DNA from: Candidatus Hermodarchaeota archaeon
GTDB taxonomy: Archaea > Asgardarchaeota > Thorarchaeia > Thorarchaeales > Thorarchaeaceae
DNA: 22,002 nt
Assembly: GCA_048885865.1 (NCBI GenBank)
Contig: JBHLLF010000042.1
Location: 1 to 22,002, forward strand
Direction: 5' to 3'
Part shown: positions 8,673-22,002 of the stretch, piece after piece
Position numbering within the stretch: the first letter of the stretch is position 1
Layout: every line of letters begins with the position of its first letter
Position numbers and translations under genes: made by a program
Notes under the pieces: generated by a model
Databases searched by the model: none
Seen by the model: the letters and a program-made list of their open reading frames with translations, nothing else
Told to the model about the DNA's origin: nothing

Positions 8673-11531
8673 TCAATTCAGGGGCCCATACCTGACCCTA
8701 CCGCCATACAAAGCATCGCGCAGATGATTGCCTGTATACGACTCCACTGAATCACAGAGGTCTTCCGGCGTGCCCACTGCAACGACCTGACCTCCGGCAT
8801 CTCCGCCTTCGGGTCCAAGATCAACCAACCAGTCTGCGGTCTTGATGACCTCAAGGTTATGTTCAACCATGATGACCGTGTTGCCACCCTCCACTAGTCT
8901 ATTCAACACTCGGAGCAGTACATGCACATCTGATGCTGATAGCCCTGTCGTGGGCTCGTCAAGCAGATACAGCGTCTTGCCTGTGCTTCGCCGTGAAAGT
9001 TCTGAGGCGATTTTCATTCGCTGCGCCTCGCCACCAGAGAGAGTCGTCGCAGGCTGTCCCAGTTCCAGATATCCAAGACCTACATCGACGAGTGTCTGGA
9101 GCTTGTCTGCGATTCTTGGAATATCACGGAAGAACTCTAGAGCCTCCTCGATTGTCATTGAGAGGACTTCTGTGATGTTCTTGCCCTTGTAGGTCACTTC
9201 AAGAGTCTCTCTGTCAAAGCGATCCCCCTTACACACATCACAGGTCATGAAGACATCACTCATGAAGTGCATCTCAACCGTAAGCACGCCACTTCCCTGG
9301 CACTTCTCGCATCGACCTTCACGTGTATTGAAAGAGAATCTCCCTTTACTGAATCCCCTGGCCTTTGCTTCAGGCATCTGAGCAAAGAGTGCTCTTATCG
9401 ATGCGAACGTCTGTGTATAGGTCGCGGGATTGGATCTAGGTGTGCGTCCAATTGGCGATTGGTCAACTAACACCAATCTATCGATATGTTCTATGCCCTC
9501 AATCCCGTCATGAGCCCCCGGAGGTGGCCCGGTTAAGCCCATTCTCCGCTGAAGTGCTCTATATAGTGTTTCATAAGTCAGGGTACTCTTCCCACTGCCG
9601 GAAACCCCTGTCACACAGATGAGCTTACCAAGCGGGAACTCCACAGTGATATTCTTGAGATTGTGCTGACTCGCACCTCTCAGTACAATCTTGGCCCCAT
9701 TCCCTTCTCGCCTCTCATTAGGCACAGGAATCTGCTTCTTTCCTGCAAGATATTGCGCAGTGAGCGACTTTGGATCTGCAAGGACATCTGTTGGAGGCCC
9801 CTCAGCCACTACGCGGCCTCCATGTATGCCAGCCAGCGGACCGAGATCTATGATATGATCTGCCGCTTGAATCGTATCCCGATCGTGCTCTATCACCACA
9901 ACAGTATTCCCGAGAGACCTCAGGTGATAGAAGGTCTCGATGAGGCGGTTGATGTCACGTGGATGGAGCCCGATCGAAGGTTCATCTAGACAGTAAAGGA
10001 CTCCAGTCAGTGCAGAGCCGATCTGTGTTGCAAGTCGTATTCTCTGGCTCTCGCCACCAGAGAGACTCATTGAGAGTCTATCTAGATTCAGATATTCAAG
10101 ACCTACAGAGATAAGGAACTTTAGTCGAGCCCGAATCTCCTTCAACACGAGTTCTGCAATCTTCATCTCACGTTCGGTGAGGTCAATCCTCTCGAAGAAG
10201 TCGGCAGCCTCTTCAATCGTCATTGATGTAACAGCGTCAATTGGCTTGCCACTTACTGTTACTGCGAGACTCTGAGGCTTCAGCTTTCTACCACCGCATG
10301 ACTCGCATGCCATCTTCCTAGAGAGAACATTGGCTATGTAGCTTGCTCGATACTGATACCACTGCTTCTCGCTTGTCCTCCCGTCCTCAAACACCTTTTC
10401 TATCCAAGGAATAAGGCCCAACCATTTCCGTGTAATCTCCCACTGTGATGACTCAGTATATTGAATGTAATGAAGCGTAATCTCAGGTCTTCCCCACAAC
10501 AGGGCCTCGCGCTGGGACTTGTTGAGCTTTGAGTAAGGAGTTTCTAGTGTGAAGCCCAAATGTTCACCTAGCGCCTCAAGACGACGAGTGAACCATGGCC
10601 TATCGGACCCGTTTACCCTCCTGCTAATGTCATGGATGGTCATTGACTTGCTGGGTATCACCAAATCAGGGTCAACCGCCATAGTGACTCCAAGACCATT
10701 GCATTCTATGCATGCTCCATCCGGACGATTGTAGGAGAACGCCTTGGGACCAAGCTTCTCATACTGAAGGCCACATTTCGGGCACATCAGCTGCTCAGCA
10801 AACATGAGGTCAGGTTCTCCTTCTCGTGCAATGACAGCCGCACCCTCACCGGTCTCCAGTGCGGTCTCTAGAGACCCTATGAGCCGTTCTCGAACTTTCT
10901 GGCTTATCTCAAGACGATCAACAACGACCTCGATGTCATGCTTCTTTCGACCATCAAGCTCAATGCCATCGATGTCATGTATATCACCATCCACCCGCAC
11001 TCTGGCAAAGCCATTCTTGAGAAGCCTCTCAAAGACTTCCTCGTGCTTCCCCGCATCGCCTCTCACGACAGGCGCTAGAACGAATACGCGATGACCACCA
11101 TTCTCATCCAAGAGAAGTCGTGCTGCAGACTCTGCGGTCAGCTGTTCCATTGCACGACCGCACTCCACACAGTGAGGCACACCAATGTTGGCGTATAGAA
11201 GCCGCAGATAGTCGTGAATCTCTGTTGACGTACCAACGGTCGATCTAGGATTCTTTGTCCTTCCTTTCTGCTCAATCGAGATAGCAGGAGGAAGTCCCGT
11301 GATCTTGTCTACCTTGGGCTTGTCCAGCCTGCCTAGGAAGCGTCTGGCATATGAGGAGAGTGACTCAACGTATCTTCTCTGCCCTTCAGCAAAAATGGTG
11401 TCAAAGACCAGAGTAGACTTGCCTGAGCCCGAAGGTCCGGTCACGACAACAAGACGGTCTCGAGGGATGTCTACATCTATCTTCTTGAGGTTGTGTTCCT
11501 CAGCCTTGCGGACTTTGATGTAGCCAGTCAT
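8673..11531 (-). CDS. uvrA: Excinuclease ABC subunit A (downstream paralogue, 952 aa)
   Basis: Two Walker A motifs ([18 protein letters not shown]), two LSGGE signatures, DEPS/DEPT Walker B motifs, three CxxC..CxxC zinc modules, [16 protein letters not shown], UvrB-binding and insertion domains present. Confidence 0.97.
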
Positions 11532-14416
11532 CCCCTTACACCTTCCTCCGCAAGCAAGTCCTTCAGATATCTCCCTGTGAAGGAGTTCTTCTTTGCTAAG
11601 ATGTCCTCAGGAGTCCCCTCTGCTACAACATATCCCCCCTCATCACCTCCCTCAGGTCCAAGGTCTATCACCCAATCACTGGTCTTCACGACATCCAACT
11701 GATGCTCAATCACAAGAACGGTGTTCCCTAGATCGACTAGTCTGTGCAGGACCTCAAGGAGCTTCTTGATGTCCGCAAAATGAAGCCCAGTTGTGGGCTC
11801 GTCTAGCATTATCAGAGTTTGTCCGGTTGCAGGTCGCGAGAGGAACTTGCTCAGCTTCACACGTTGTGCCTCGCCGCCCGAGAGAGTTGTTGCAGGCTGC
11901 CCAAGTTTGATGTAGCCCATCCCAACTGCACATAATGTCTCGAGTCGTCTATGAATCGAAGGAACACCTTCAAAGAACTTCACTGCCTCGTCGATCCTCA
12001 TGTCTAGGATGTCTGCTATGTTCTTCCCCTTGAATCGGACCTGAAGTGTTTCTCTGTTATACCTCCGCCCTTTGCACTCAGTGCATGTGACCTGAACAGG
12101 AGGGAGAAACTGCATCTCAATTATCTCGACACCAGCGCCTTGGCACTTCTCACATCGACCTCCTTTCACGTTGAAAGAGAAGCGTCCAGGCTTGTATCCG
12201 CGTATCTGTGACTCAGGAAGACCGGAGAATAGCTCTCTAAGTGGAGACCACAGTCCAGTATACGTCGCAGGATTCGACCGGGGTGTCCTGCCGATCGGAC
12301 TCTGGTCAATCACGATCACTTTATCGAGCTGCTCTGCTCCAACGATATCATCATGGTCGCCGGGCTTCTTCTCAGCCTTGTGGAACCTGTGCGCCAGCTC
12401 TCTCTGAAGAGTTTCAACAATAAGACTTGACTTGCCGCTACCTGACACACCAGTCACTGAGATAAACATCCCAAGTGGAAATCTGACATTGATATTCTTG
12501 AGGTTGTTATGTCGAGCACCACGCAACTCGATGAAGCGGCCATTGGGTCCTCTTCGCTTCTTGGGGACTGGAATCGCAACTTCTCCACGGAGATACTTGG
12601 CTGTGATCGAGTCCTTTGCATTGAGTATTTCACTCAATTCTCCAGCAACAACAACCTCTCCACCCTCAGCCCCAGCACCCGGTCCGAGATCGACGATATA
12701 ATCTGCGCTCTTCATGGTCTCTTCGTCATGTTCGACCACTAAGACAGTGTTTCCGAGGTCTCTCAGCCGCATCAACGAGTTGAGTAGACGCTTATTGTCA
12801 CGTGCATGAAGCCCGATCGAAGGTTCATCGCATACATAGGTCACTCCAACAAGATTCGAGCCAATCTGACTGGCTAGTCGTATGCGCTGTGCCTCGCCAC
12901 CTGCGAGAGACGGAGCGGTTCGGTTCAGAGTCAGATAGTCGAGGCCTACATCTCTCAGGAAGCCTATTCTGCCCATAATCTCTCTGAGTATTGGTTCGGC
13001 TACCGGTTGAAAGCGAGGATCTATCTTGACACTCTTGAAGAACTCATGCAGCCCCTTCACTGACAAGACATCAATCTCGGCAATGGACTTTCCCCCAAAG
13101 GTCACGGCGCGGGACTCGGGGCGCAAACGGCTACCATTGCATGATGGGCACGTGAGCTCCGACATGTATAGGGACTCAATCTGCTTCCTGCTGTATTCAG
13201 ATTTTGTCGTGCTATAGACTCGCAGCGCTCTCTGCATCCAACCTTCGAAGGGCCGCTGGAATTTCCCAGAGTAGGTAACACCATAGTCCTCATTCCCACC
13301 CTCCCACGTCGACTCAAACCGTTCTTCACCAGATCCATGAAGCAGGACGTGTTTCTGTTTCTTAGTTAGGTCGTTCCACTTTGTATCGAGGGTGAAGCCA
13401 TACTTCTCAGCGACTTTCTTTAGGCGAGTCCGCTTCAGCTTCCACTCGTAGCCCCTTAAAGCACCTTCACGGATGGTGAGTTCAGGATTCTCAATGAACC
13501 TGTCAGGATCGAACTCGCGGACTGAACCGATGCCTGTACATTGGGGACATGCACCCTGAGGTGTATTCCATGAGAAGATACGTGGTTCCATCTCAGGCAG
13601 ACTGATACCGCAGTCCACGCAGGCGAACTGCTCTGAGAGAGTGATATCGCCATCTGGCTTTGATATGACCACGACACCATCAGCCATGTTCAGGGAGGTT
13701 TCTACAGCCTCAGAGATTCTTCCCCGTTCAGATGGTTTGACACGTACTCTATCAATCACAACCTCAATGGTGTGTTCAAAATAGCGGTCGAGTGACATTC
13801 CTTCCTCAATGTCCTTTAGCTCGCCATCCACACGTGCTCTGATGTAGCCCTTCTTCAGAAGGTCCTTGAACTCCCTACGGTACTCCCCCTTTCGACCCCT
13901 CACAATGGGAGCCATAATCATAATCCGGGTGCCTTCCTCAAGCTGCAGGACGATGTCCACCATCTGTTGTGATGTCTGTGGCTCAATTTTCTTTCCGCAT
14001 TCGGGACAGTGCGGCTCGCCCACTCTAGCGTACAATAATCTCAGGAAGTCGTAGATCTCCGTTATTGTGCCAACTGTCGAGCGAGGGTTCCTCCCTACAC
14101 TCTTCTGGTCTATAGATATCGAGGGAGAAAGACCCGACATGAAGTCCACCTTTGGCTTCTCAAGCATACCAAGAAACTGACGGGCATAGGGTGAGAGCGA
14201 TTCAACGAATCTTCGCTGGCCTTCTGCAAAGATGGTATCGAAGACCAAGCTGGACTTACCGCTGCCTGAGACCCCAGTTACGACTGTTAGGGTGTTCTTC
14301 GGAATCTCCACGTCGATGTGCCGCAGATTGTTTTCTGCTGCACCCATAACGACGATAGACCTCGGTCCGTCGAACTCAGTCGGGTCACCATTGCGCTTCT
14401 TTGTCGCAGCCTTCAC
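11528..14416 (-). CDS. uvrA: Excinuclease ABC subunit A (upstream paralogue, 962 aa)
   Basis: GVSGSGKSS twice, LAGGEAQRI and LSGGEAQRV signatures, CDEPS/LDEPTT, three zinc modules, [19 protein letters not shown] start overlaps the uvrB stop (GTGA). Confidence 0.97.
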   Translation of the reverse strand: MKAATKKRNGDPTEFDGPRSIVVMGAAENNLRHIDVEIPKNTLTVVTGVSGSGKSSLVFDTIFAEGQRRFVESLSPYARQFLGMLEKPKVDFMSGLSPSISIDQKSVGRNPRSTVGTITEIYDFLRLLYARVGEPHCPECGKKIEPQTSQQMVDIVLQLEEGTRIMIMAPIVRGRKGEYRREFKDLLKKGYIRARVDGELKDIEEGMSLDRYFEHTIEVVIDRVRVKPSERGRISEAVETSLNMADGVVVISKPDGDITLSEQFACVDCGISLPEMEPRIFSWNTPQGACPQCTGIGSVREFDPDRFIENPELTIREGALRGYEWKLKRTRLKKVAEKYGFTLDTKWNDLTKKQKHVLLHGSGEERFESTWEGGNEDYGVTYSGKFQRPFEGWMQRALRVYSTTKSEYSRKQIESLYMSELTCPSCNGSRLRPESRAVTFGGKSIAEIDVLSVKGLHEFFKSVKIDPRFQPVAEPILREIMGRIGFLRDVGLDYLTLNRTAPSLAGGEAQRIRLASQIGSNLVGVTYVCDEPSIGLHARDNKRLLNSLMRLRDLGNTVLVVEHDEETMKSADYIVDLGPGAGAEGGEVVVAGELSEILNAKDSITAKYLRGEVAIPVPKKRRGPNGRFIELRGARHNNLKNINVRFPLGMFISVTGVSGSGKSSLIVETLQRELAHRFHKAEKKPGDHDDIVGAEQLDKVIVIDQSPIGRTPRSNPATYTGLWSPLRELFSGLPESQIRGYKPGRFSFNVKGGRCEKCQGAGVEIIEMQFLPPVQVTCTECKGRRYNRETLQVRFKGKNIADILDMRIDEAVKFFEGVPSIHRRLETLCAVGMGYIKLGQPATTLSGGEAQRVKLSKFLSRPATGQTLIMLDEPTTGLHFADIKKLLEVLHRLVDLGNTVLVIEHQLDVVKTSDWVIDLGPEGGDEGGYVVAEGTPEDILAKKNSFTGRYLKDLLAEEGVRG

Positions 14417-16398
14417 GTTCCGTTGCCCTCAACCTTCTTTCTCAAATCCAAAATCTGATCTCGCAGTTTCGCCGCTCTTTCGAACTCAAGGTTCCGAGCA
14501 GCCTCTTTCATCTGTTCCTCCAGGTCGATGATATAGTCCATCATGTCTTCAATTTCAAGCGGGTCGAAATCCCCGATCTCAGTCTGCACCGTCTTCTCCA
14601 GTCTAACAATGCCTTCAGCAATGTCACGAATGTCCTTCACAATGGTACGAGGCTCGATGTTGTGTTCCTCATTGAACTTGATTTGATAGCTCCGTCTGCG
14701 ATTTGTTTCATCTATTGCACTCTGCATGGCATTAGACACATGATCTCCATATAGGATAACTCGACCTCGAACATTGCGAGAGGCTCTACCCATTGTCTGA
14801 ATAAGTGCCCAGTCAGTACGGAGGAATCCTTCCTTGTCTGCATCAAGAACCGCTACTAGACCCACTTCTGGAAGGTCGAGTCCCTCACGCAGTAGATTGA
14901 TCCCAACAAGGACATCGAACTTACCTTGTCTGAGCTGCCGTATTATCTCAATCCTCTCGACAGTGCCAATGTCTGAGTGGAGATATCTCGCCTTGATACC
15001 AGCCTCTACAAGATACTCTGCCAACATCTCAGCAGTCTTCTTAGTGAGAGTGGTCACTAGGACTCTGTCACGGTCTGCAGTAGTCTGCTTTATCTCGCCC
15101 AACAGATGGTCAACCTGTCCTACGACTGGACGAACTGTGATGTCTGGATCGAGGAGACCTGTGGGTCTGAGGAGCTGCTCAACAATCTGTCCACTCACTT
15201 TGCGTTCATGAGGGCCAGGTGTTGCGCTCGTGTAAACAACGTGCTTCATGTACTTCTCGAACTCTTTGAACTTCAGGGGTCGGTTATCAAACGCCGATGG
15301 TAGTCTGAATCCATAGTCGACCAAGTTCTGCTTTCGAGAGAGGTCTCCGTGGTACATGCCCCGAACCTGTGGAATGGTCATATGGGACTCATCGATGATC
15401 ATTAGGAAGTCCTCAGGGAAGTAATCCAGCAATGTATATGGCTTCTCACCCTTCTTTCTTCCATCTATATACCGTGAATAGTTCTCAATCCCTTGAGTTT
15501 TGCCGGTCTCCCTCATCATCTCCATATCATAAAGGGTGCGTCTCTTGAGTCGATCAGCCTCAACAAGCTTTCCTTGCTGTCTAAACCGCTCAACTCGTTC
15601 TCTCATTTCCTGCTCGATGGCATCTAGTGAATCGGTGATTCTTTCATACCGTGCGATATGATGCCTGGCCGGAAACAGCTCAATCCACTTCAAACGCTCT
15701 AGGTGTCTTGAGGTCAGAGCTTCGAGTACAGAGATTCTTTCAACTTCATCTCCATCGAGTTCAATCCTGATGAGGTTCCTTGAGGCAGCCGGACAGACAT
15801 CGATCACATCCCCCCTCACACGAAAAGTCCCTGGCTTCACTTCCATGTCATTCCGGTCGTACTGCATGGCCACGAGTTTCTCGAGTAGACTTCGTCTGTC
15901 TATCTCCTTGCCAACCTCCACCATCATTCGGAAGTAGTCATACTCTGAGGGGTTGCCCACTCCATAAATACAGGAAACAGAGGCAACAACGATGACATCA
16001 TCTCGAGACCTCAATGAGTGCGTTGCTGAATGTCTGAGGCGTTCAATCTCCTCATTGATGTCAGATTCCTTCTCAATGTACATGTCCTTTGATGGCACGT
16101 AAGCCTCTGGCTGATAATAATCATAATAACTCACGAAATATTCGACTGCCGCATCGGGGAAGAACTGCCTGTACTCTGAGGCCAGCTGTGCTGCCAGAGT
16201 CTTGTTGTGAGAGATGACTAGAGTTGGCTTGTTGTACTTCTCGATCACATTTGCCATTGTGAACGTCTTGCCGCTTCCTGTGACACCCAGCAGAGTCTGG
16301 TACTGAAGTTCGCTCTCGAGACCCTCCACTAGTTTATCTATCGCTTGCGGCTGATCGCCAGTGGGCTCGAAGGGGGCTTCAAGTTTGAACTCTGCCAT
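14413..16398 (-). CDS. uvrB: Excinuclease ABC subunit B
   Basis: PTGDQPQAI, GVTGSGKT, HNKTLAAQL, beta-hairpin YYDYYQPEAY, DESH, INLLREGLDLPEV, C-terminal UVR domain (LEFERAAKLRD). GAGGT RBS upstream. Confidence 0.98.
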   Translation of the reverse strand: MAEFKLEAPFEPTGDQPQAIDKLVEGLESELQYQTLLGVTGSGKTFTMANVIEKYNKPTLVISHNKTLAAQLASEYRQFFPDAAVEYFVSYYDYYQPEAYVPSKDMYIEKESDINEEIERLRHSATHSLRSRDDVIVVASVSCIYGVGNPSEYDYFRMMVEVGKEIDRRSLLEKLVAMQYDRNDMEVKPGTFRVRGDVIDVCPAASRNLIRIELDGDEVERISVLEALTSRHLERLKWIELFPARHHIARYERITDSLDAIEQEMRERVERFRQQGKLVEADRLKRRTLYDMEMMRETGKTQGIENYSRYIDGRKKGEKPYTLLDYFPEDFLMIIDESHMTIPQVRGMYHGDLSRKQNLVDYGFRLPSAFDNRPLKFKEFEKYMKHVVYTSATPGPHERKVSGQIVEQLLRPTGLLDPDITVRPVVGQVDHLLGEIKQTTADRDRVLVTTLTKKTAEMLAEYLVEAGIKARYLHSDIGTVERIEIIRQLRQGKFDVLVGINLLREGLDLPEVGLVAVLDADKEGFLRTDWALIQTMGRASRNVRGRVILYGDHVSNAMQSAIDETNRRRSYQIKFNEEHNIEPRTIVKDIRDIAEGIVRLEKTVQTEIGDFDPLEIEDMMDYIIDLEEQMKEAARNLEFERAAKLRDQILDLRKKVEGNGT

Positions 16399-16628
16399 CT
16401 GCTCGGACCTCTACATCAGTGTCGCTCACACCTGACTACAAGTAACTCTTTGGATTTGTACTATGCCTCGACAACATCTGGACGGCTCACACTTCTACTA
16501 GGAGTTTATCGTTTAGATGGGTTCGGTCGATGAAACATCAACGTCTGAGGGAGATGGTCGAAAGTATCAGGCGAGCAGAATATCCGCTGCAGAACCGAGA
16601 TATATCACTAAAGCTCGGAAAGTCCGAG
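16385..16628. repeat. Structured direct repeat, copy 1 (overlaps uvrB first 14 nt, RBS and upstream region)
   Basis: By manual alignment, about 18 differences over the first ~190 nt versus 21710-21898. Shares the core CTTCTACTAGGAG...GGTCGAAAGTATC and terminal GATATATCA-N6-CTCGG-N5-CCGAG with copies 2 and 3. Confidence 0.95.
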
Positions 16629-16734
16629 AGGAATATCAGTGTATACATCCAACCATTAATACAACCAGTTCACATAGACTGATTGATTGAGAGCGCTGCT
16701 CTTTGTAGCGCCGATTCCCGGGTTGCCAAATCCC

Positions 16735-17568
16735 TCACCCCAAACCCGTATGATGTTTGTCTTGAGACTGTTGTGTTTCATCCGGTACTCCAAAAGCTCT
16801 GTAGAATCCAGCTTCGATGATGTATGTGAGGACCAAGATTAGCCCTGCACAACTCAGAATCGGCAAGAATAAAGCTAGATCTTGAAACCCGCCAATGAAT
16901 GTCAAGAGGGTCATGAGTCCCATAACGCACAGACCAGGACCAAAAAGACATGCGAATGCCACATCTGTTCCTTCATCCTCTGAACCTGATGTCAATCGAA
17001 TGCGATCGTTATGACTGGCTGGAATGCCTGAATCAGGATTCAGCTTCTTGAATGCTCTATAATAGCCCTCACTTCTGAACTCAAGAGAACCTCTATGAAG
17101 GAAGAATGACACATCGTAGAAGCTATGAAACGGAGATAGCACATCGAAATATCGTGATAGCTTGAGTATTTTGAATCCAAGTGGCGCAGACAGAGCTACG
17201 AGCATTAACAGGAAGGTCATTATCGAAGGACTTGGAGCCAACATATTCAGGATGTATGACAATGTCAGAATCAGCACGAGTGCGGTCATTGCTCCTACCA
17301 TGTTTTTGATTCGCAATGCTTTCTGTTCAGTTCTTGCGAAGAGCTCACAGGAGGTACAGAGGTAAAGGTGTGCATTAACACTAAAACTCTGATGGCGTAC
17401 TGTATCCATGAGAGCACTGGATTCCTTAGTTTGTATCTCTCTCTCAATTGTATATTTCGTGCTAATGAGATCCACTTTTTCTTGTGTACCACAACCTATG
17501 CAGGCTTTTGGCTATGACATCTTCTGAAACCTAAGATTGAATGGACGGCGACCATCAAACAACTGCAT
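16735..17568 (-). pseudogene. Zinc-ribbon (CxxC...CxxC) membrane protein interrupted by an in-frame TAG at 17512-17514
   Basis: The frame of ORF 16735..17475 extends upstream as MQLFDGRRPFNLRFQKMS*PKACIGCGTQEKVDL..., starting at ATG 17568 after AGAGGGA. CIGC would pair with the downstream CTSC; about 4 TM segments follow. Confidence 0.7.
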
Positions 17569-17737
17569 TCCCTCTTTCTGGCCAAGAACCAAGATTGATT
17601 AAGAAAAATCTTTGGAGCTTGCAAGCATACAATCGGTGCGGAGAGACCTCTGCAGATTTGTGCCAAGGACGTTGGGATGAATAGTCAAGACTTATCAAAT
17701 CCTGCAGTTTGGAAGAAATGGTTTTGAGGAAAGAAAC

Positions 17738-18823
17738 ATGAGTATCGAACTGACCTACACTCTTGAGTTTGATGATGATTATCAATATCAAGACCCTGAC
17801 TTTGATGGGGAGTTTATAGTTCAGAGAAGGGAGGTGTTCTCTCAGGAAGACGAAAAGATAGAACTTGAAGATATGTTGTATATGACTCAGATTGACCTTT
17901 CTCCACTCAGCTCGTGCAAGAATCTGAAAAAATTTCGAATACATGGTAGCTACCTCACAACCATTGACATCACTTCACTCAGTTCTTGTACTGCCCTTGA
18001 GGTGCTAAATCTTGAAGGCAACCTGCTTCAAGACATTGACCTAGCTCCACTCAGTTCGTGCACTAATCTGAAAGAGCTGTGGTTGAATCATAACCGTTTC
18101 AAGAACATCGATTTGTCCCCCCTAAGTTCATGTGACAATCTTCAAAAGCTCTTGTTAGGTCGGAACTATCTATTGAACATTGACCTCTCCCCTCTCCGTA
18201 CTTGTACTAAATTGAATTGGCTTGCTCTCACAGAGAATCAGCTCAAGAACATTGATCTTGGTCCCTTATGTTTCTGCAGGCATCTTGAGCATCTCGACCT
18301 AAGCAACAACCGATTTATTGAGATAGATCTGGCTCCTCTAAGCGACATGGTTGACCTGAAACATCTATACCTGGGCCAGAATCAACTACAGAGTGTTGAT
18401 CTCACACCGCTGAGTACATGTGCGGCTCTTGAATTTCTCATACTGAGAGATAATCATCTAATGGACATCGACTTGACACCACTCAGCTCCTGTGTAAGTC
18501 TGAGATACCTCAATCTGGCGAGGAACCAGCTACCAAATATTGACTTATCCCCCCTTGGTCCTGATGTTGAGGTGCGGCTAGGTCCATCTCAAGACGTTGT
18601 TCCTATCGTGTCCCGAAAACCCTCTCAACTCACAAGAAGTGAACTGATTGAACGAATCAAACATGGTGAGACGATGGAAGATATTAGAGCGCGAGGTCCT
18701 GTGGAGGTCAAATGCGAAGGATGCAACACTGTCTATCATCATTATCCAGACCAATTCAGTAGTCTTGAAAAATGCGGCATTTGCGGTGAGATGATTCATC
18801 TTCCTCGATTATCTAAGGAATAA
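17738..18823 (+). CDS. Leucine-rich repeat protein with C-terminal zinc ribbon
   Basis: Nine complete 24-aa repeats (IDLxPLSSCxxLxxLxLxxNxLxx) plus a partial tenth; C-terminal CEGC...CGIC; GAGG upstream. Confidence 0.93.
   Translation: MSIELTYTLEFDDDYQYQDPDFDGEFIVQRREVFSQEDEKIELEDMLYMTQIDLSPLSSCKNLKKFRIHGSYLTTIDITSLSSCTALEVLNLEGNLLQDIDLAPLSSCTNLKELWLNHNRFKNIDLSPLSSCDNLQKLLLGRNYLLNIDLSPLRTCTKLNWLALTENQLKNIDLGPLCFCRHLEHLDLSNNRFIEIDLAPLSDMVDLKHLYLGQNQLQSVDLTPLSTCAALEFLILRDNHLMDIDLTPLSSCVSLRYLNLARNQLPNIDLSPLGPDVEVRLGPSQDVVPIVSRKPSQLTRSELIERIKHGETMEDIRARGPVEVKCEGCNTVYHHYPDQFSSLEKCGICGEMIHLPRLSKE
17891..18556 (+). repeat. 72-bp-period coding repeat underlying the LRR units
   Basis: ATTGAC/ATCGAT/GTTGAT (ID/VD) recurs at an exact 72-nt period from 17891 to 18539. 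Confidence 0.85.
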
Positions 18824-19003
18824 TTGAGCGCGCTGAGAAACTGACTGTGGGATATAACAAGATCTCTCCCTGATTCTGACGTATATGAGAGTGTAGAGAC
18901 CTCTGTCTTATCGATTCTGTAGCGATTACTCCAGCTGGAGTCTGCCTCGGTGTGAGATAATCTTGCGCGCTTGAAGGTCACCATATACTGCTTTTAACGC
19001 CCA

Positions 19004-19205
19004 GCCATCAAATCCGGAATTGAGTGCTTCACTAGCTTTCTCATAAAAGTCCCTGTAACTTAGTTCTTCTACTAGGAGTTTATCATTCAGATGCGTTCGG
19101 TCTATGAAACATCAATGTCTGAGGGAGATGGTCGAAAGTATCAGGTGAAGCATCATCTAGAATTGAATAAGGTCGATATATCAGTGCCACTCGGAAACGC
19201 CGAGT
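19004..19205. repeat. Structured direct repeat, copy 2 (core 19066-19205 highly similar; 5' arm diverged and shorter)
   Basis: 19066-19152 differs from 21816-21902 at 5 of 87 positions. It has the same GATATATCA-N6-CTCGG-N5-CCGAG end, and its 5' GCCATC...CGGA matches the start of copies 1 and 3. Confidence 0.9.
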
Positions 19206-19216
19206 TTTCTTTTTTG
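19189..19216 (+). terminator. Possible terminator: hairpin followed by T-rich tract
   Basis: ACTCGG-aaacg-CCGAGT followed by TTTCTTTTTTG at the 3' end of repeat copy 2. Confidence 0.35.
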
Positions 19217-19272
19217 CTTATACAGCGGAAAACCTGGGCTATTCTGATCAGAATCGTGAAGGATATGCGAAA

Positions 19273-19737
19273 CTACTGAGTAAGAGAACCATAGTGCCTG
19301 AAGACTTCCATCCATAGAAAGGTCAAGGCTGACATGCCTATGGCCAAGGCAAACACATTGTGTGCGCCAAAATCGAATGGTGTTGTGACAGCATATACAA
19401 TTACCAACACCGTCACAAATGATGCATAGAATGTCATCCGAGGGACAGCACCATGTTCAAAGAAGAGATAGTTTTCAAGAAAGCCAAGGTCGGCATCAGG
19501 ATTGACGATGAAATCGCCCTCAGATGTCTTAAGTGAGAGTTTCTGTTGGGTTAACTTCTCGAGATGGTAAAGCCCAACACTTGGACTGCTTAATTTGAGT
19601 CGCTTCGTTAGTTCTCTGGGTCCTATGGGTCGCCGAATACTAAGTAGAACCATGAAGACCTTCCAAGTGGTTTCACCCAACTGAAACACGATTGGCAACT
19701 TTTTCGACCTTCTTAGATATGACACCATCCAAACCAC
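19273..19737 (-). CDS. Membrane-tethered winged helix-turn-helix transcriptional regulator (wHTH + 2 C-terminal TM helices)
   Basis: GETTWKVFMVLL..RPIGPRELTKRLKLSSPSVGLYHLEKL....GDFIV (archaeal wHTH) followed by two hydrophobic helices. True start probably a few codons downstream of 19737; overlaps the end of the upstream gene. Confidence 0.85.
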   Translation of the reverse strand: MVWMVSYLRRSKKLPIVFQLGETTWKVFMVLLSIRRPIGPRELTKRLKLSSPSVGLYHLEKLTQQKLSLKTSEGDFIVNPDADLGFLENYLFFEHGAVPRMTFYASFVTVLVIVYAVTTPFDFGAHNVFALAIGMSALTFLWMEVFRHYGSLTQ

Positions 19738-21622
19738 TTCGCTTCTTTATCCTCTTATGCCCTTGATATATCAGTATCTGGAAACCCCAAAGAACTGGGG
19801 CAGCTGCTGCAAGAATAAAGCCAATTGATATCCCAAGCGGAAATGGAGTAAAGATAAGGGTCAAGACTCCAAGACAGAGTGGGAGTAAAATGTATGCTGC
19901 ATAATAGAAATTCAATTTCCACTTGCTAGACCATCCAATATGCATTGCTGCTCCGTATAGTGGAAACCAGAAAATGATTACTCGAATTAGACCATCTATT
20001 AGAATGGTGTTTCGTATCAGAGGCAGTGCAAGAGAATTCGCAGTGAAATCAATGCTAATTGCAATTGGAGGGTATAAAGCTCTGACAAGCATAAAGGAAT
20101 CACCTGCATAGAACGATCCTTCGGGATTCATGGGGAAGAATGAAATAAACCAAGGAAGGAAGATGCTGATGCCAATGAGCAATGTTGGCCAAAAACGTGT
20201 ATCTCTCACAATCCGTTCCCAATTCCTGCTCGCCCCAGGCCTTCGTAGATTCAGAATCGCACCACCTAGGAGCGCCAAACCAAAGACTGATAGAAGCAAT
20301 TCCCCTGTTGATAGCAGAATGCCAAAAAAGGAGAATAAGGGCATATGAAGATGAATATCAATGTTCATGGGTCCAGAAATGGATATTGTTTCTCTACCAG
20401 CATAATCCATTCTGGGCAGCATATAATCAGCATAATTCATTCTGGAAGGAATCTGTAGAGTAATGATTAGTATGTCACCACGGTTCGGAATGCAAATAGT
20501 CTGAGGAAAGGGAGAGGGCAACATGAAGCTATGGTAAAGACTGATATCGTATAAGAGGACCCCAGGTTGCTCTAGATTGACTACTAGATAGGGGATATCC
20601 GGAGTTATCAAGAGATTCACGAAAACCATTTCGAATCTCATGCTCAGGTGTGTGCAAGTGTTTGGTGCTATATTGATTGAAATTGGATATGTCTGATTAA
20701 CCCAACCAAATCCATAGGTGCCCGCTATGCCTGAATAGTTACCTGCAGAAACATATACTGTGTCATTGGTCCTGAAAGGCAGAAGTAAACCCCAACGTTC
20801 TGGGTCTCCTTGAGTGGTCAGGTTAACCGCGGGCCATTCTGCTATGCCCTTCTCAATCTTTGCTTCATAGATGCTAGAGCCTTCAGTATTTTGAACATCT
20901 ACGCGCAATAACGAAAGAGGAGTGCTTGAAGAAGCTGTAATGGTTACATTGTTAATGATGACAGATGCCATGTTAGGCAAATTCGTGCCCATTGGAACTA
21001 TACCAATCCTCAATCGAGCCTGCACAAGCCACACGGAGGACCAGTGATTGTATATCCAGTCTGCATCCAGATCCAGATTGAACTGGGTTGAGTCACCGGT
21101 AGTGAGGCTGTATTCTCTCTGAGAACCACTATAACTTGGATGATCAACCGCGCGATAATAGTGGACTCCAACACGAACCTCAACGGGACCACGCAGGACA
21201 TCCAAATCTAGGGAGAATGTAACTTGCTCATAATCCCGGGTATTGAGGTTGAAGTGATAATCTGAGATGATAGCAACATTGGAGAGATCTATTTGAACCC
21301 CTGACATGTGTGGAGTCCTCTCGACTATTGGAAGACCCTCATTTATGGAACGGAACTCCGTTTGCCAACCAGAATCAGGATCAAAACTAGAGCCATTTTG
21401 AAGGGTCAATTCAGCACGTGACTGTAGTGAGGCAACAGTGACATTCGAACCTGCTGTTCCGGCTGCGGGAGTACTGGTAACATCAAAATGAGGCTCAACA
21501 ACATCAGGCACGGCAATATTGATTGCTACTCCTAGAAGGCTGGCTAATATAGCTCCAACTATTGCGGTATGAATGAGACGCCGGCCTAATCCAGGACGGT
21601 CTTGCGCCTTTTTGTGAGCCAT
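19673..21622 (-). CDS. Large membrane protein: N-terminal TM/signal, ~400-aa beta-rich extracellular region, multi-TM C-terminus
   Basis: Long ORF with likely ATG at 21622 (MAHKK...). Basic N-terminus plus hydrophobic helix, several N-x-S/T sequons (NVT, NGS, NIT, NLT, NDT, NYS, NQT), about 5-6 C-terminal TM segments. Confidence 0.85.
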   Translation of the reverse strand: MAHKKAQDRPGLGRRLIHTAIVGAILASLLGVAINIAVPDVVEPHFDVTSTPAAGTAGSNVTVASLQSRAELTLQNGSSFDPDSGWQTEFRSINEGLPIVERTPHMSGVQIDLSNVAIISDYHFNLNTRDYEQVTFSLDLDVLRGPVEVRVGVHYYRAVDHPSYSGSQREYSLTTGDSTQFNLDLDADWIYNHWSSVWLVQARLRIGIVPMGTNLPNMASVIINNVTITASSSTPLSLLRVDVQNTEGSSIYEAKIEKGIAEWPAVNLTTQGDPERWGLLLPFRTNDTVYVSAGNYSGIAGTYGFGWVNQTYPISINIAPNTCTHLSMRFEMVFVNLLITPDIPYLVVNLEQPGVLLYDISLYHSFMLPSPFPQTICIPNRGDILIITLQIPSRMNYADYMLPRMDYAGRETISISGPMNIDIHLHMPLFSFFGILLSTGELLLSVFGLALLGGAILNLRRPGASRNWERIVRDTRFWPTLLIGISIFLPWFISFFPMNPEGSFYAGDSFMLVRALYPPIAISIDFTANSLALPLIRNTILIDGLIRVIIFWFPLYGAAMHIGWSSKWKLNFYYAAYILLPLCLGVLTLIFTPFPLGISIGFILAAAAPVLWGFQILIYQGHKRIKKRSGLDGVISKKVEKVANRVSVG

Positions 21623-21709
21623 GATTCTTTCATGCAACCCAGTAGCCGCAGTTCACTTCAATCTAGAGTTTAGAACACCCCAGAATTCCTCAGTCTATCG
21701 GAAAATCTG

Positions 21710-21955
21710 TTGAACTCTGCCATCTGCTCGGACCTCTCGTCAGTGTCGCTCACACCTGACTACAAGTAACTCTTTGGATTTGTGCCATGCCTTGACAACA
21801 TCTGAACGAGATGCACTTCTACTAGGAGTTTATTATTCAGATGCGTTCGGTCGATGAAACATCAACGTCTAAGGGAGATGGTCGAAAGTATCGGGTGAAG
21901 CAGCATCCGAAACAGATGAAGGTCGATATATCAATGACACTCGGAAATTCCGAGT
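21710..21955. repeat. Structured direct repeat, copy 3 (includes duplicated uvrB RBS and first 14 nt)
   Basis: TTGAACTCTGCCATCTGCTCGGACCTCT is identical to 16385-16412. Ends in GATATATCA-atgaca-CTCGGAAATTCCGAGT. Confidence 0.95.
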
Positions 21956-22002
21956 CTACTCAGGAATCTTTTCTATCACAGCTCTCATCGCTTTCCGGTA
22001 TT

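Follow-up and report, generated by a model that had tools for sequence, protein, structure and literature searches.

A Probable Promoter-Anchored Displacement Array at the 5' End of uvrB in Thorarchaeota

The Array in Outline

Upstream of the DNA-repair gene uvrB there is found, in Thorarchaeota, a 5'-end, promoter-anchored displacement array, that is, two cargo modules set among three direct copies of a sequence (R) which comparison among genomes identifies as the host's ordinary uvrB promoter region, not as a mobile-element site. These repeats most likely were left behind by the successive addition of accessory blocks from related lineages. The route by which those blocks were added is probably, although by no means assuredly, a stacking of sister-lineage alleles, via recombination which is anchored by homology at one end and illegitimate at the other.

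The window considered here comprises contig C42 in its entirety, with a length of 22,002 nt. It belongs to a MAG of 3.58 Mb (G000) which is 87% complete with 5.3% contamination, and relatives carrying the same locus are labelled Ca. Thorarchaeota. The left part of the window contains, on the minus strand, uvrC, a TPR gene, two uvrA genes, and uvrB. The last of these (14413..16398, minus strand; 661 aa, with Pfam UvrB domains) is the anchor gene of the array as well as the head of a uvrB-uvrA-uvrA'-TPR-uvrC operon.

Three Repeats of Differing Origin

An earlier note on this DNA had described uvrB as the anchor of a hotspot, to which cargo had been added in series, with units bounded by copies of a repeat, a description which stands, as do the three direct repeats themselves. 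The note had also proposed BLASTN of the repeat against its own genome, and this finds exactly three copies, co-oriented and all on C42. Two of these are of full length: R1 (16385..16628), which is the working uvrB 5' end along with its promoter region, and R3 (21710..21954), a displaced full promoter copy. Both open with the first 14 nt of uvrB, and they are 85% identical to each other over 248 nt (E 7e-73). The middle repeat, R2, exists as had been noted, but as a 140-nt left-truncated copy (19066..19205), rather than one starting at about 19004, with its left 105 nt gone (29/107 identity). Core-to-core spacing is 2574 and 2750 nt.

R1 and R3 have diverged from each other as much as is seen between species, so these copies are not recent duplicates. 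In relatives, which have only one copy, that copy is 88-91% identical to R3. R1 by contrast looks to be a chimera, with a left portion and middle resembling those of a close clade (72-76 of 77 positions identical across the middle) but with a last segment of about 60 nt resembling instead that of a distant clade (G004/G005/G011/G012), i.e., 42-45 of 62 positions identical versus 34-38 of 62 for the close clade. To judge from these comparisons, then, the three copies derive from different lineages. Their right end is constant while their left end is variable, falling at uvrB +14 or at -105 here, at -40 in G114, and at about -190 in G032.

The Repeat as Promoter Region

Same-genus genomes carry one copy of R, directly upstream of uvrB, with the closest four being 90-91% identical to R3. 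A family-wide search, using a sequence model derived from 43 such upstream regions, similarly finds R nearly always once per genome and at uvrB, as based on strong matches. In collections of metagenomes and genomes, true matches again are at uvrB, except for one found at a contig start (L078), with others being chance matches, and a pattern search of viral contigs for the repeat returned none. Among RNA data sets no holder was listed, from which nothing follows as to expression. The earlier note had allowed that a genome-wide, MITE-like scatter would count against its reading. No such scatter is seen: dispersed repeats of the MITE or REP type can be set aside given only three copies, all on one contig, along with the finding of neither Y1 nor IS110 enzymes.

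What R consists of are short blocks of conserved DNA, these being a BRE/TATA-like box, a central motif, and a palindrome. The box, a conserved alignment block (16440..16453, minus strand), is located 42-55 nt upstream of the uvrB start. It is present as well in R3 (21764-21777), is absent from R2, resembles boxes found upstream of this genome's tRNA genes, and presumably serves as a promoter element. The palindrome, CTCG-N7-CGAG (16614..16628, 19190-19204, and 21940-21954), is near-invariant across the 43 sequences, is without compensatory change, and marks the right limit of conservation within genus g1. It is probably a protein-binding site, as its conservation suggests. A role for the palindrome as a genome-wide operator was considered and rejected, as there is only a weak excess of it (10 intergenic copies versus 1-7 for other spacers). 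So too was a role as a recombination point, since duplicated homology in G114 continues for about 35 nt beyond it.

The repeat had been described also as 'structured', and as a dedicated recombination element, neither of which survives. MFE z-scores run from -0.9 to +1.4, the SCI is 0.05, and the 43-sequence alignment yields merely four base pairs, none of them compensatory. With no covarying fold and no Rfam match, a structured ncRNA or riboswitch is rejected for either strand. A hidden small ORF is rejected as well, as there is no family-wide open frame, with stops found in 22-40 of the 43 sequences. Rather than a dedicated element, R thus would be a normally single-copy uvrB promoter, one lacking both a fold and attC cores.

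A Possible Damage Regulon

Within each of the three copies is a DDRE-like element, TA(G/C)TTTCR-N5-CTC (minus strand; 16549..16568, 19123-19142, and 21873-21892), as recognized by a PWM and by its match to the DDRE of Sulfolobus, which is an Orc1-2-bound element (PMC6061795). This element and the palindrome are all that remain in R2. When a PWM trained on uvrB sites only is used to rank this genome's 3082 ORFs, the top ranks are taken by uvrB, the R3-preceded cargo gene, a tfb paralog, nreA, a DHS-like gene, and an AAA/Cdc6-like gene. Against the Sulfolobus DDRE 20-mer, the nreA site matches at 18 of 20 positions and that of the tfb paralog at 16 of 20. The R1 site of uvrB matches at 12 of 20, which by itself is chance level, the link in this case being made through the PWM. 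Among other genomes, weak model matches to the central motif precede nre at 9 of 17 loci inspected, and the motif is found also before dinB (3, probably 4), deoxyhypusine synthase (3), and a GTPase/polB pair (1). Divergent Cdc6 paralogs are present in the genome, with those at C12:28657-29850 and C2:11073-12263 as candidates for binding R, and the AAA protein bears the motif at its start.

The likeness to the Orc1-2/DDRE regulon of the Sulfolobales includes the core ANTTTC with the same spacing to a downstream CTC, sites located before a tfb paralog and before repair genes, and the encoding of Cdc6-like paralogs (PMC6061795). Unlike in Sulfolobus, the site is found about 150-170 nt upstream of uvrB, versus 23-55 nt for most Sulfolobus genes (PMC6061795), and targets here include uvrBAC, nreA, and dinB. 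R therefore probably carries a damage-responsive element, with binding of an Orc1-2 type and damage induction at R being what the motif would imply. These data more generally support the existence of a Sulfolobus-type damage regulon in Asgard archaea, one that would consist of uvrBAC, nreA, dinB, and a tfb paralog. As R3 is a complete promoter copy found 73 nt upstream of the large gene of module B, and on the same strand, that gene too may be damage-inducible.

The Cargo

The content of the array is as had been claimed, i.e., two two-gene modules, A and B, with one of the genes broken and with no recombinase between the repeats. The broken gene is the first of module A (16735..17568, minus strand), for a membrane protein with CxxC and four TM segments, which is interrupted by a TAG stop at 17512-17514 where homologs instead have Trp. 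It is 61-67% identical to two intact homologs, both of which are found away from uvrB. Directly behind it is a 37-nt remnant of the 3' end of uS19 (16692..16728, minus strand), suggesting by this placement that the gene came from a uS19-anchored array. The second gene of module A (17738..18823, plus strand) encodes an LRR protein with C-terminal CxxC pairs, a member of a large Thorarchaeota family.

Module B contains a gene for a 154-aa protein (19273..19737, minus strand) and a gene for a 654-aa multi-TM membrane protein (19673..21637, minus strand), the latter now downstream of the complete promoter copy R3. The two are paired across the family, and a 57% homolog of the larger protein is found at the same hotspot in GCA_048882765.1. 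The smaller protein had been called a membrane wHTH regulator. Two TM segments and, by eye, an HTH-like N-terminus are indeed present, but with no Pfam HTH match.

The cargo had been judged AT-richer than the uvr genes, and this is so in direction, with a GC of 0.437 and 0.442 for the cargo versus 0.496 for the uvr genes. The departure is only mild, however, at about 1.5 SD under the genome mean of 0.463 +/- 0.016.

Joints, Assembly, and the End of the Array

Misassembly had been named as something which would undo the reading of this locus as an array, but the junctions are genuine. Unitigs with zero differences cross the joints of module A with R2 and of module B with R3 in 3-4 samples, with the confirming runs all from one study and one of them possibly the source of this assembly. 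A second MAG (GCA_048937605.1), from that study as well, matches positions 11793-19879 at 99.9%, and holds uvrB, R1, module A, R2, and module B in one contig. That the array is an assembly artefact, or that modules A and B exist solely as an extrachromosomal circle, has some appeal in that unitigs break inside 29-44 nt stretches which are common to the copies (positions 16416-16459, for instance, are identical to 21740-21783), such that none spans the whole array, and in that the modules have less depth than their flanks. With both novel joints recovered as above, however, and with the right end of R1 itself joined to module A, this is a highly improbable account. Depth in X1 is 28.3 for uvrB, 20.7 and 20.3 for the modules, and 27.3 for R3 along with the wHTH gene that follows it, with a similar ratio seen in X2 and X3 but not in X4. 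Such a ratio would fit a minority lacking both modules, which is a hint only, as contig depth is no share of cells.

At its far side, module B meets uvrB position +14 at a non-homologous joint (21700..21715) with about 1 nt of microhomology. R3 then leads into the 3' end of a wHTH gene (21955..22002, minus strand), the same gene that in G008 and G015 is found next after their only copy of R, such that the sequence returns there to what would be the resident allele. About 1.2 kb beyond this point the G015 backbone is taken up again by another contig of the same genome, C86, with an identity of 91%. Though the array had been thought perhaps to continue beyond 22002, on these grounds it most likely ends at R3.

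A Hotspot Shared with Relatives

As the earlier note had advised, regions upstream of uvrB were compared across relatives, and their cargo varies. Within genus g1 there are 10 different flanks beyond the palindrome among 16 copies of R, with the outer backbone held in common. Most cargo exchanges at uvrB in these relatives leave no repeat copy. For module B, a sister genome (L236) is particularly informative: it has a homolog of the large module B gene beside the same backbone genes but without R, and its flank is nearly identical to the window up to 21710, continuing then with backbone instead of R3. Module B, by this comparison, is a sister-lineage allele of the same hotspot. A donor having module A next to uvrB was not found.

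The uvrB gene itself points in the same direction. Mismatch to G015 at third codon positions is 0.40 before and 0.18 after codon 207 (0/500 permutations), such that the first roughly 200 codons look mosaic, i.e., as though recombined in. G015 compared with m81 displays a similar 5' excess, and uvrB 5' ends therefore are mosaic in several lineages.

Extra copies of R or of the uvrB 5' end are found in G017, G032, G082, and G114. In G032 a 37-nt piece closes a 2.6-kb transporter gene which is missing from G017. G017 and G082 have uvrB fragments with R, as does G114, which has in addition a further copy of 203 nt at a distance of 7 kb and a piece of 22 nt at 11 kb. The R of G114 resembles that of an other-genus genome, so its bin label may be wrong, though it is still a separate lineage.

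It is these fragments which give weight to a different reading, namely that integrative elements have accreted and decayed at codon 93/94 of uvrB, in the manner of CIMEs. An integrase, whether the element's own or trans-acting, would in that case have supplied a new uvrB 5' end and promoter while displacing the old, with later deletions then taking the integrase end along with part of the displaced copy, thereby leaving R2 and R3. The fragments of G017, G082, and G114 share an end point at codon 93/94, to within about 5 nt, adjoining cargo of a defence type (CRISPR array, type II methyltransferase, OLD TOPRIM). The intact uvrB of G017 has altered codons at that place, and in one pair of uvrB genes a mosaic boundary falls exactly at codon 95. 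The fixed break in three genomes, together with that mosaic, points to a site-specific enzyme, and to that extent argues against stacking. Accretion also predicts that copies should agree at their right ends, vary at their left ends, and be of mixed origin, as they do here. Yet there is no integrase beside the fragments in the flanking DNA fetched (short contigs), nor was any found in G017 (94% complete), G032, G015, or G000. The mosaic boundary of uvrB here is near codon 200 rather than codon 94, module B in the sister genome adjoins backbone genes instead of lying within a recognisable element, and viral contigs give only 55-81% matches to the uvrB N-terminus. None of the CRISPR spacers of the G017 island target uvrB. 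Accretion accordingly strikes us as possible but rather unlikely as an account of this array, though both it and stacking may operate within the family.

Similar Arrays Elsewhere in the Genome

The earlier note had suggested a search for recombinases, and in this genome, as far as its 87% completeness goes, none was found of the tyrosine, serine, IS110, Y1, Cas1, or RT enzymes (PF00589, PF00239, PF07508, PF02371, PF01797, PF01867, and PF00078). Of the 17 genomes in the genus, all of them incomplete, 4 have tyrosine recombinases (PF00589).

Comparison of the genome with itself reveals about ten similar arrays, in which 1-3 variable genes are found between repeated ends of a conserved locus. Anchors include uS19, acyl-CoA dehydrogenase (ACAD; 3' end plus promoter), mvhD-like and iscU-like genes, 16S and tRNA ends, and promoters. 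Copies number as many as 9-10 per array, and in G014 the matches to the uS19 end come to nine, that of the gene itself included. Tail copies differ from the anchor mainly synonymously (44 vs. 8; 22 vs. 5), and differ also from each other, so that each was formerly a working allele. Many of the uS19 and ACAD tail copies have a common left boundary. A Cas1-like duplication of host sequence was rejected, since the copies differ as separate alleles do and no Cas1 was found.

This abundance could be explained by a host-encoded factor, of an unrecognised family, which captures gene blocks at many locus ends and duplicates the end each time, with the uvrB promoter then serving as but one landing site. 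The number of arrays in one genome, their copy number and small units, the common left boundaries at some anchors, the lack of any known recombinase, and the apparent movement of cargo between anchors (as with the uS19 remnant in module A) are all as such a factor would have it. The copies nevertheless are donor-like alleles, not host duplicates, most exchanges at uvrB are without a repeat, no joint motif is common to the anchors by eye, cargo-side arms are not conserved, and there is no candidate enzyme. Capture of this sort is quite improbable. A broader conception would have a general Thorarchaeota capture system, based on a factor of unknown family that cuts at fixed points such as codon 93/94, using the ends of housekeeping loci as landing pads and, through a damage-inducible uvrB promoter, placing module B under control of an Orc1-2 type; this we hold to be unlikely, if a little less so.

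Stacking of Alleles as the Probable Route

The reading preferred here, the stacking of sister-lineage alleles, starts from the DNA outside of R being a variable slot, whose content differs by lineage, with an array then consisting of a stack of such alleles. Incoming DNA from a related lineage would bring the donor's uvrB 5' end and promoter together with its cargo. It would recombine homologously on the uvrB side, while its far end would be joined non-homologously inside of the recipient's uvrB start or promoter. The donor promoter and cargo would in this way be installed beside uvrB, with the old promoter, now left-truncated, and the old cargo pushed outward. Module B would have been added first, leaving R3, and module A thereafter, leaving R2. 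Host recombination between copies could then loop modules out again. This recombination route and order of events, like promoter activity and damage induction, are what we infer from the sequences at hand.

Seen at the locus are a homologous anchor to one side (the mosaic uvrB 5' end and R1) and about 1 nt of microhomology to the other (at 21710). Also favoring stacking are R being single-copy, R1 being chimeric, the L236 configuration, variable left ends, a piece of a uS19 array within module A, no recombinase family found in this genome, and tail copies in the other arrays that were once working alleles. The layout recurs, moreover, at about ten unrelated anchors, which are too many for one site-specific enzyme. 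The same route has been proposed for T6SS arrays of Vibrio and for Rhs arrays (PMC5361080).

Against stacking, beyond the codon 93/94 breaks, are the common left boundary of many uS19 and ACAD tail copies, and there being no module A donor at uvrB. Homology-facilitated illegitimate recombination usually deletes rather than duplicates. With the genome 87% complete, a recombinase could also be missing from it. Such recombination was, in addition, rare in the bacteria that have been tested (PMC5361080).

Comparison with Known Systems

An integron-like but non-canonical recombination site had been proposed for the repeat. As with integrons and CALINs, archaeal ones included, the array is polarised and has small units between related repeats (PMC9668308). 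Unlike them, there is no IntI, there are neither attC cores nor a conserved bottom-strand, single-stranded hairpin, the repeat is a host promoter, and units have two genes each, those of module A being oppositely oriented. No attC core pair (RYYYAAC ... GTTRRRY) is present in R1, R2, or R3, with one isolated match at the joint of module B with R3. There being no PF00589, the IntI family, in G000 is by itself no bar to CALINs, which lack IntI by definition. It is for the missing attC features, as judged by core pattern and fold, that an integron is excluded.

CIMEs of Streptococcus salivarius (at rpsI, rpmG, fda, and rplL) are alike in being integrase-less tandem units, of 1-13 kb, with direct repeats of the target end (PMC7563491), and the present modules likewise lie between direct repeats of a target gene's end and have no recombinase inside. 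CIMEs differ in having defined att sites and in occurring in tandem with ICEs or IMEs at 3' ends (PMC7563491), versus the variable left ends, use of a 5' end, and no parent element found of the present case. A fixed att crossover does not describe R2 and R3, as their left ends differ, though it does describe the three codon-93/94 fragments found elsewhere.

No paper on either allele-stacked arrays or a damage regulon in Thorarchaeota was found within a literature coverage that is incomplete. The closest likeness in layout is to the T6SS effector-immunity arrays of Vibrio cholerae and to Rhs/CDI orphan modules, in which a new module is installed beside a conserved anchor while old content is pushed outward along with a truncated remnant, and without an integrase (PMC5361080). 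What is seen here differs in its anchor, which is the 5' end of a DNA-repair gene plus its promoter, in having a promoter as its remnant, in its cargo of unrelated membrane and LRR genes, and in being found in an Asgard archaeon, where there are many such anchors. The evidence at this locus is unusually direct, consisting of a donor configuration in a sister genome, the sequence of a joint, and chimeric repeats. If stacking is indeed the route, then integron-like arrays can be built by stacking alleles behind conserved loci, in an Asgard lineage with no detectable integrase, much as is proposed for those bacterial systems.

Arrays of Gene-End and Promoter Repeats

Within the window's genome (G000), the acyl-CoA dehydrogenase gene (L279, C14:1-19000) is followed by about nine copies of its own 3' end and is preceded by two copies of its promoter plus first codons, with each of these copies, downstream as well as upstream, bounding cargo. 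Copies of the uS19 3' end, approximately 80 nt each, lie between blocks of one to three variable genes, giving an array that has four copies in G000 (L280, C13:1-11000), with nine matches seen in the related genome G014 (L261, C84), among them the gene's own end. Most uS19 copies share a left boundary, with differences found at synonymous sites. More arrays of gene-end or promoter repeats are present in G000 at C56:11760-14600, C27:16400-19150, C21:34400-48600, C19:7500-11430 and C20:77-3500, and on contigs C106, C50, C23 and C54, their anchors being mvhD-like, iscU-like, a 16S tail, tRNA ends and others. A third type of intergenic repeat, about 100 nt long, flanks a homolog of the first gene of module A (L232).

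Truncation and Variation of uvrB

The truncated uvrB 5' copies of three genomes (L140:568-852, L150, L151:642-929) each break at codon 93/94, a candidate att site inside uvrB. Fetched flanking DNA in these three genomes revealed no integrase beside the copies. G017 carries an intact uvrB with altered codons at this same point of breakage. Adjoining that uvrB is an island (L065, C9:1-15900) encoding NurA, HerA, Mre11, Rad50, PLD, an SF1 helicase, CARF-HTH and Cas6, along with a CRISPR array (L177). One over-long, 47-nt spacer of the latter has 16 of 17 bases in common with the uvrB promoter box of the window's genus, a likeness that is probably due to chance.

The window itself possesses two diverged uvrA genes (8673-14416), both full-length and coupled to uvrB. 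With G030 (L198, C15:258-7241), two genes are inserted between uvrB and uvrA, and the promoter region R stands before uvrA rather than before uvrB. In G048 (C1:1471972-1475517), uvrB is broken up near residue 46, inside a 1243-aa open frame, with the interruption possibly an intein. The G016 uvrB promoter (L061) combines a distant left part with a right end like that of the close clade, and is without the central DDRE block.

A Candidate DDRE Regulon

That block resembles the DDRE, that is, the Orc1-2-bound damage-responsive element of Sulfolobus. Motif matches (L208, L209, L276, L278; G000 C50:6317) suggest as candidate regulon members a tfb paralog, nreA, a DHS-like gene and an AAA/Cdc6-like gene, with a divergent Cdc6 gene preceded by a weak DDRE-like site, and with nre, dinB and DHS genes as candidates in other genomes.
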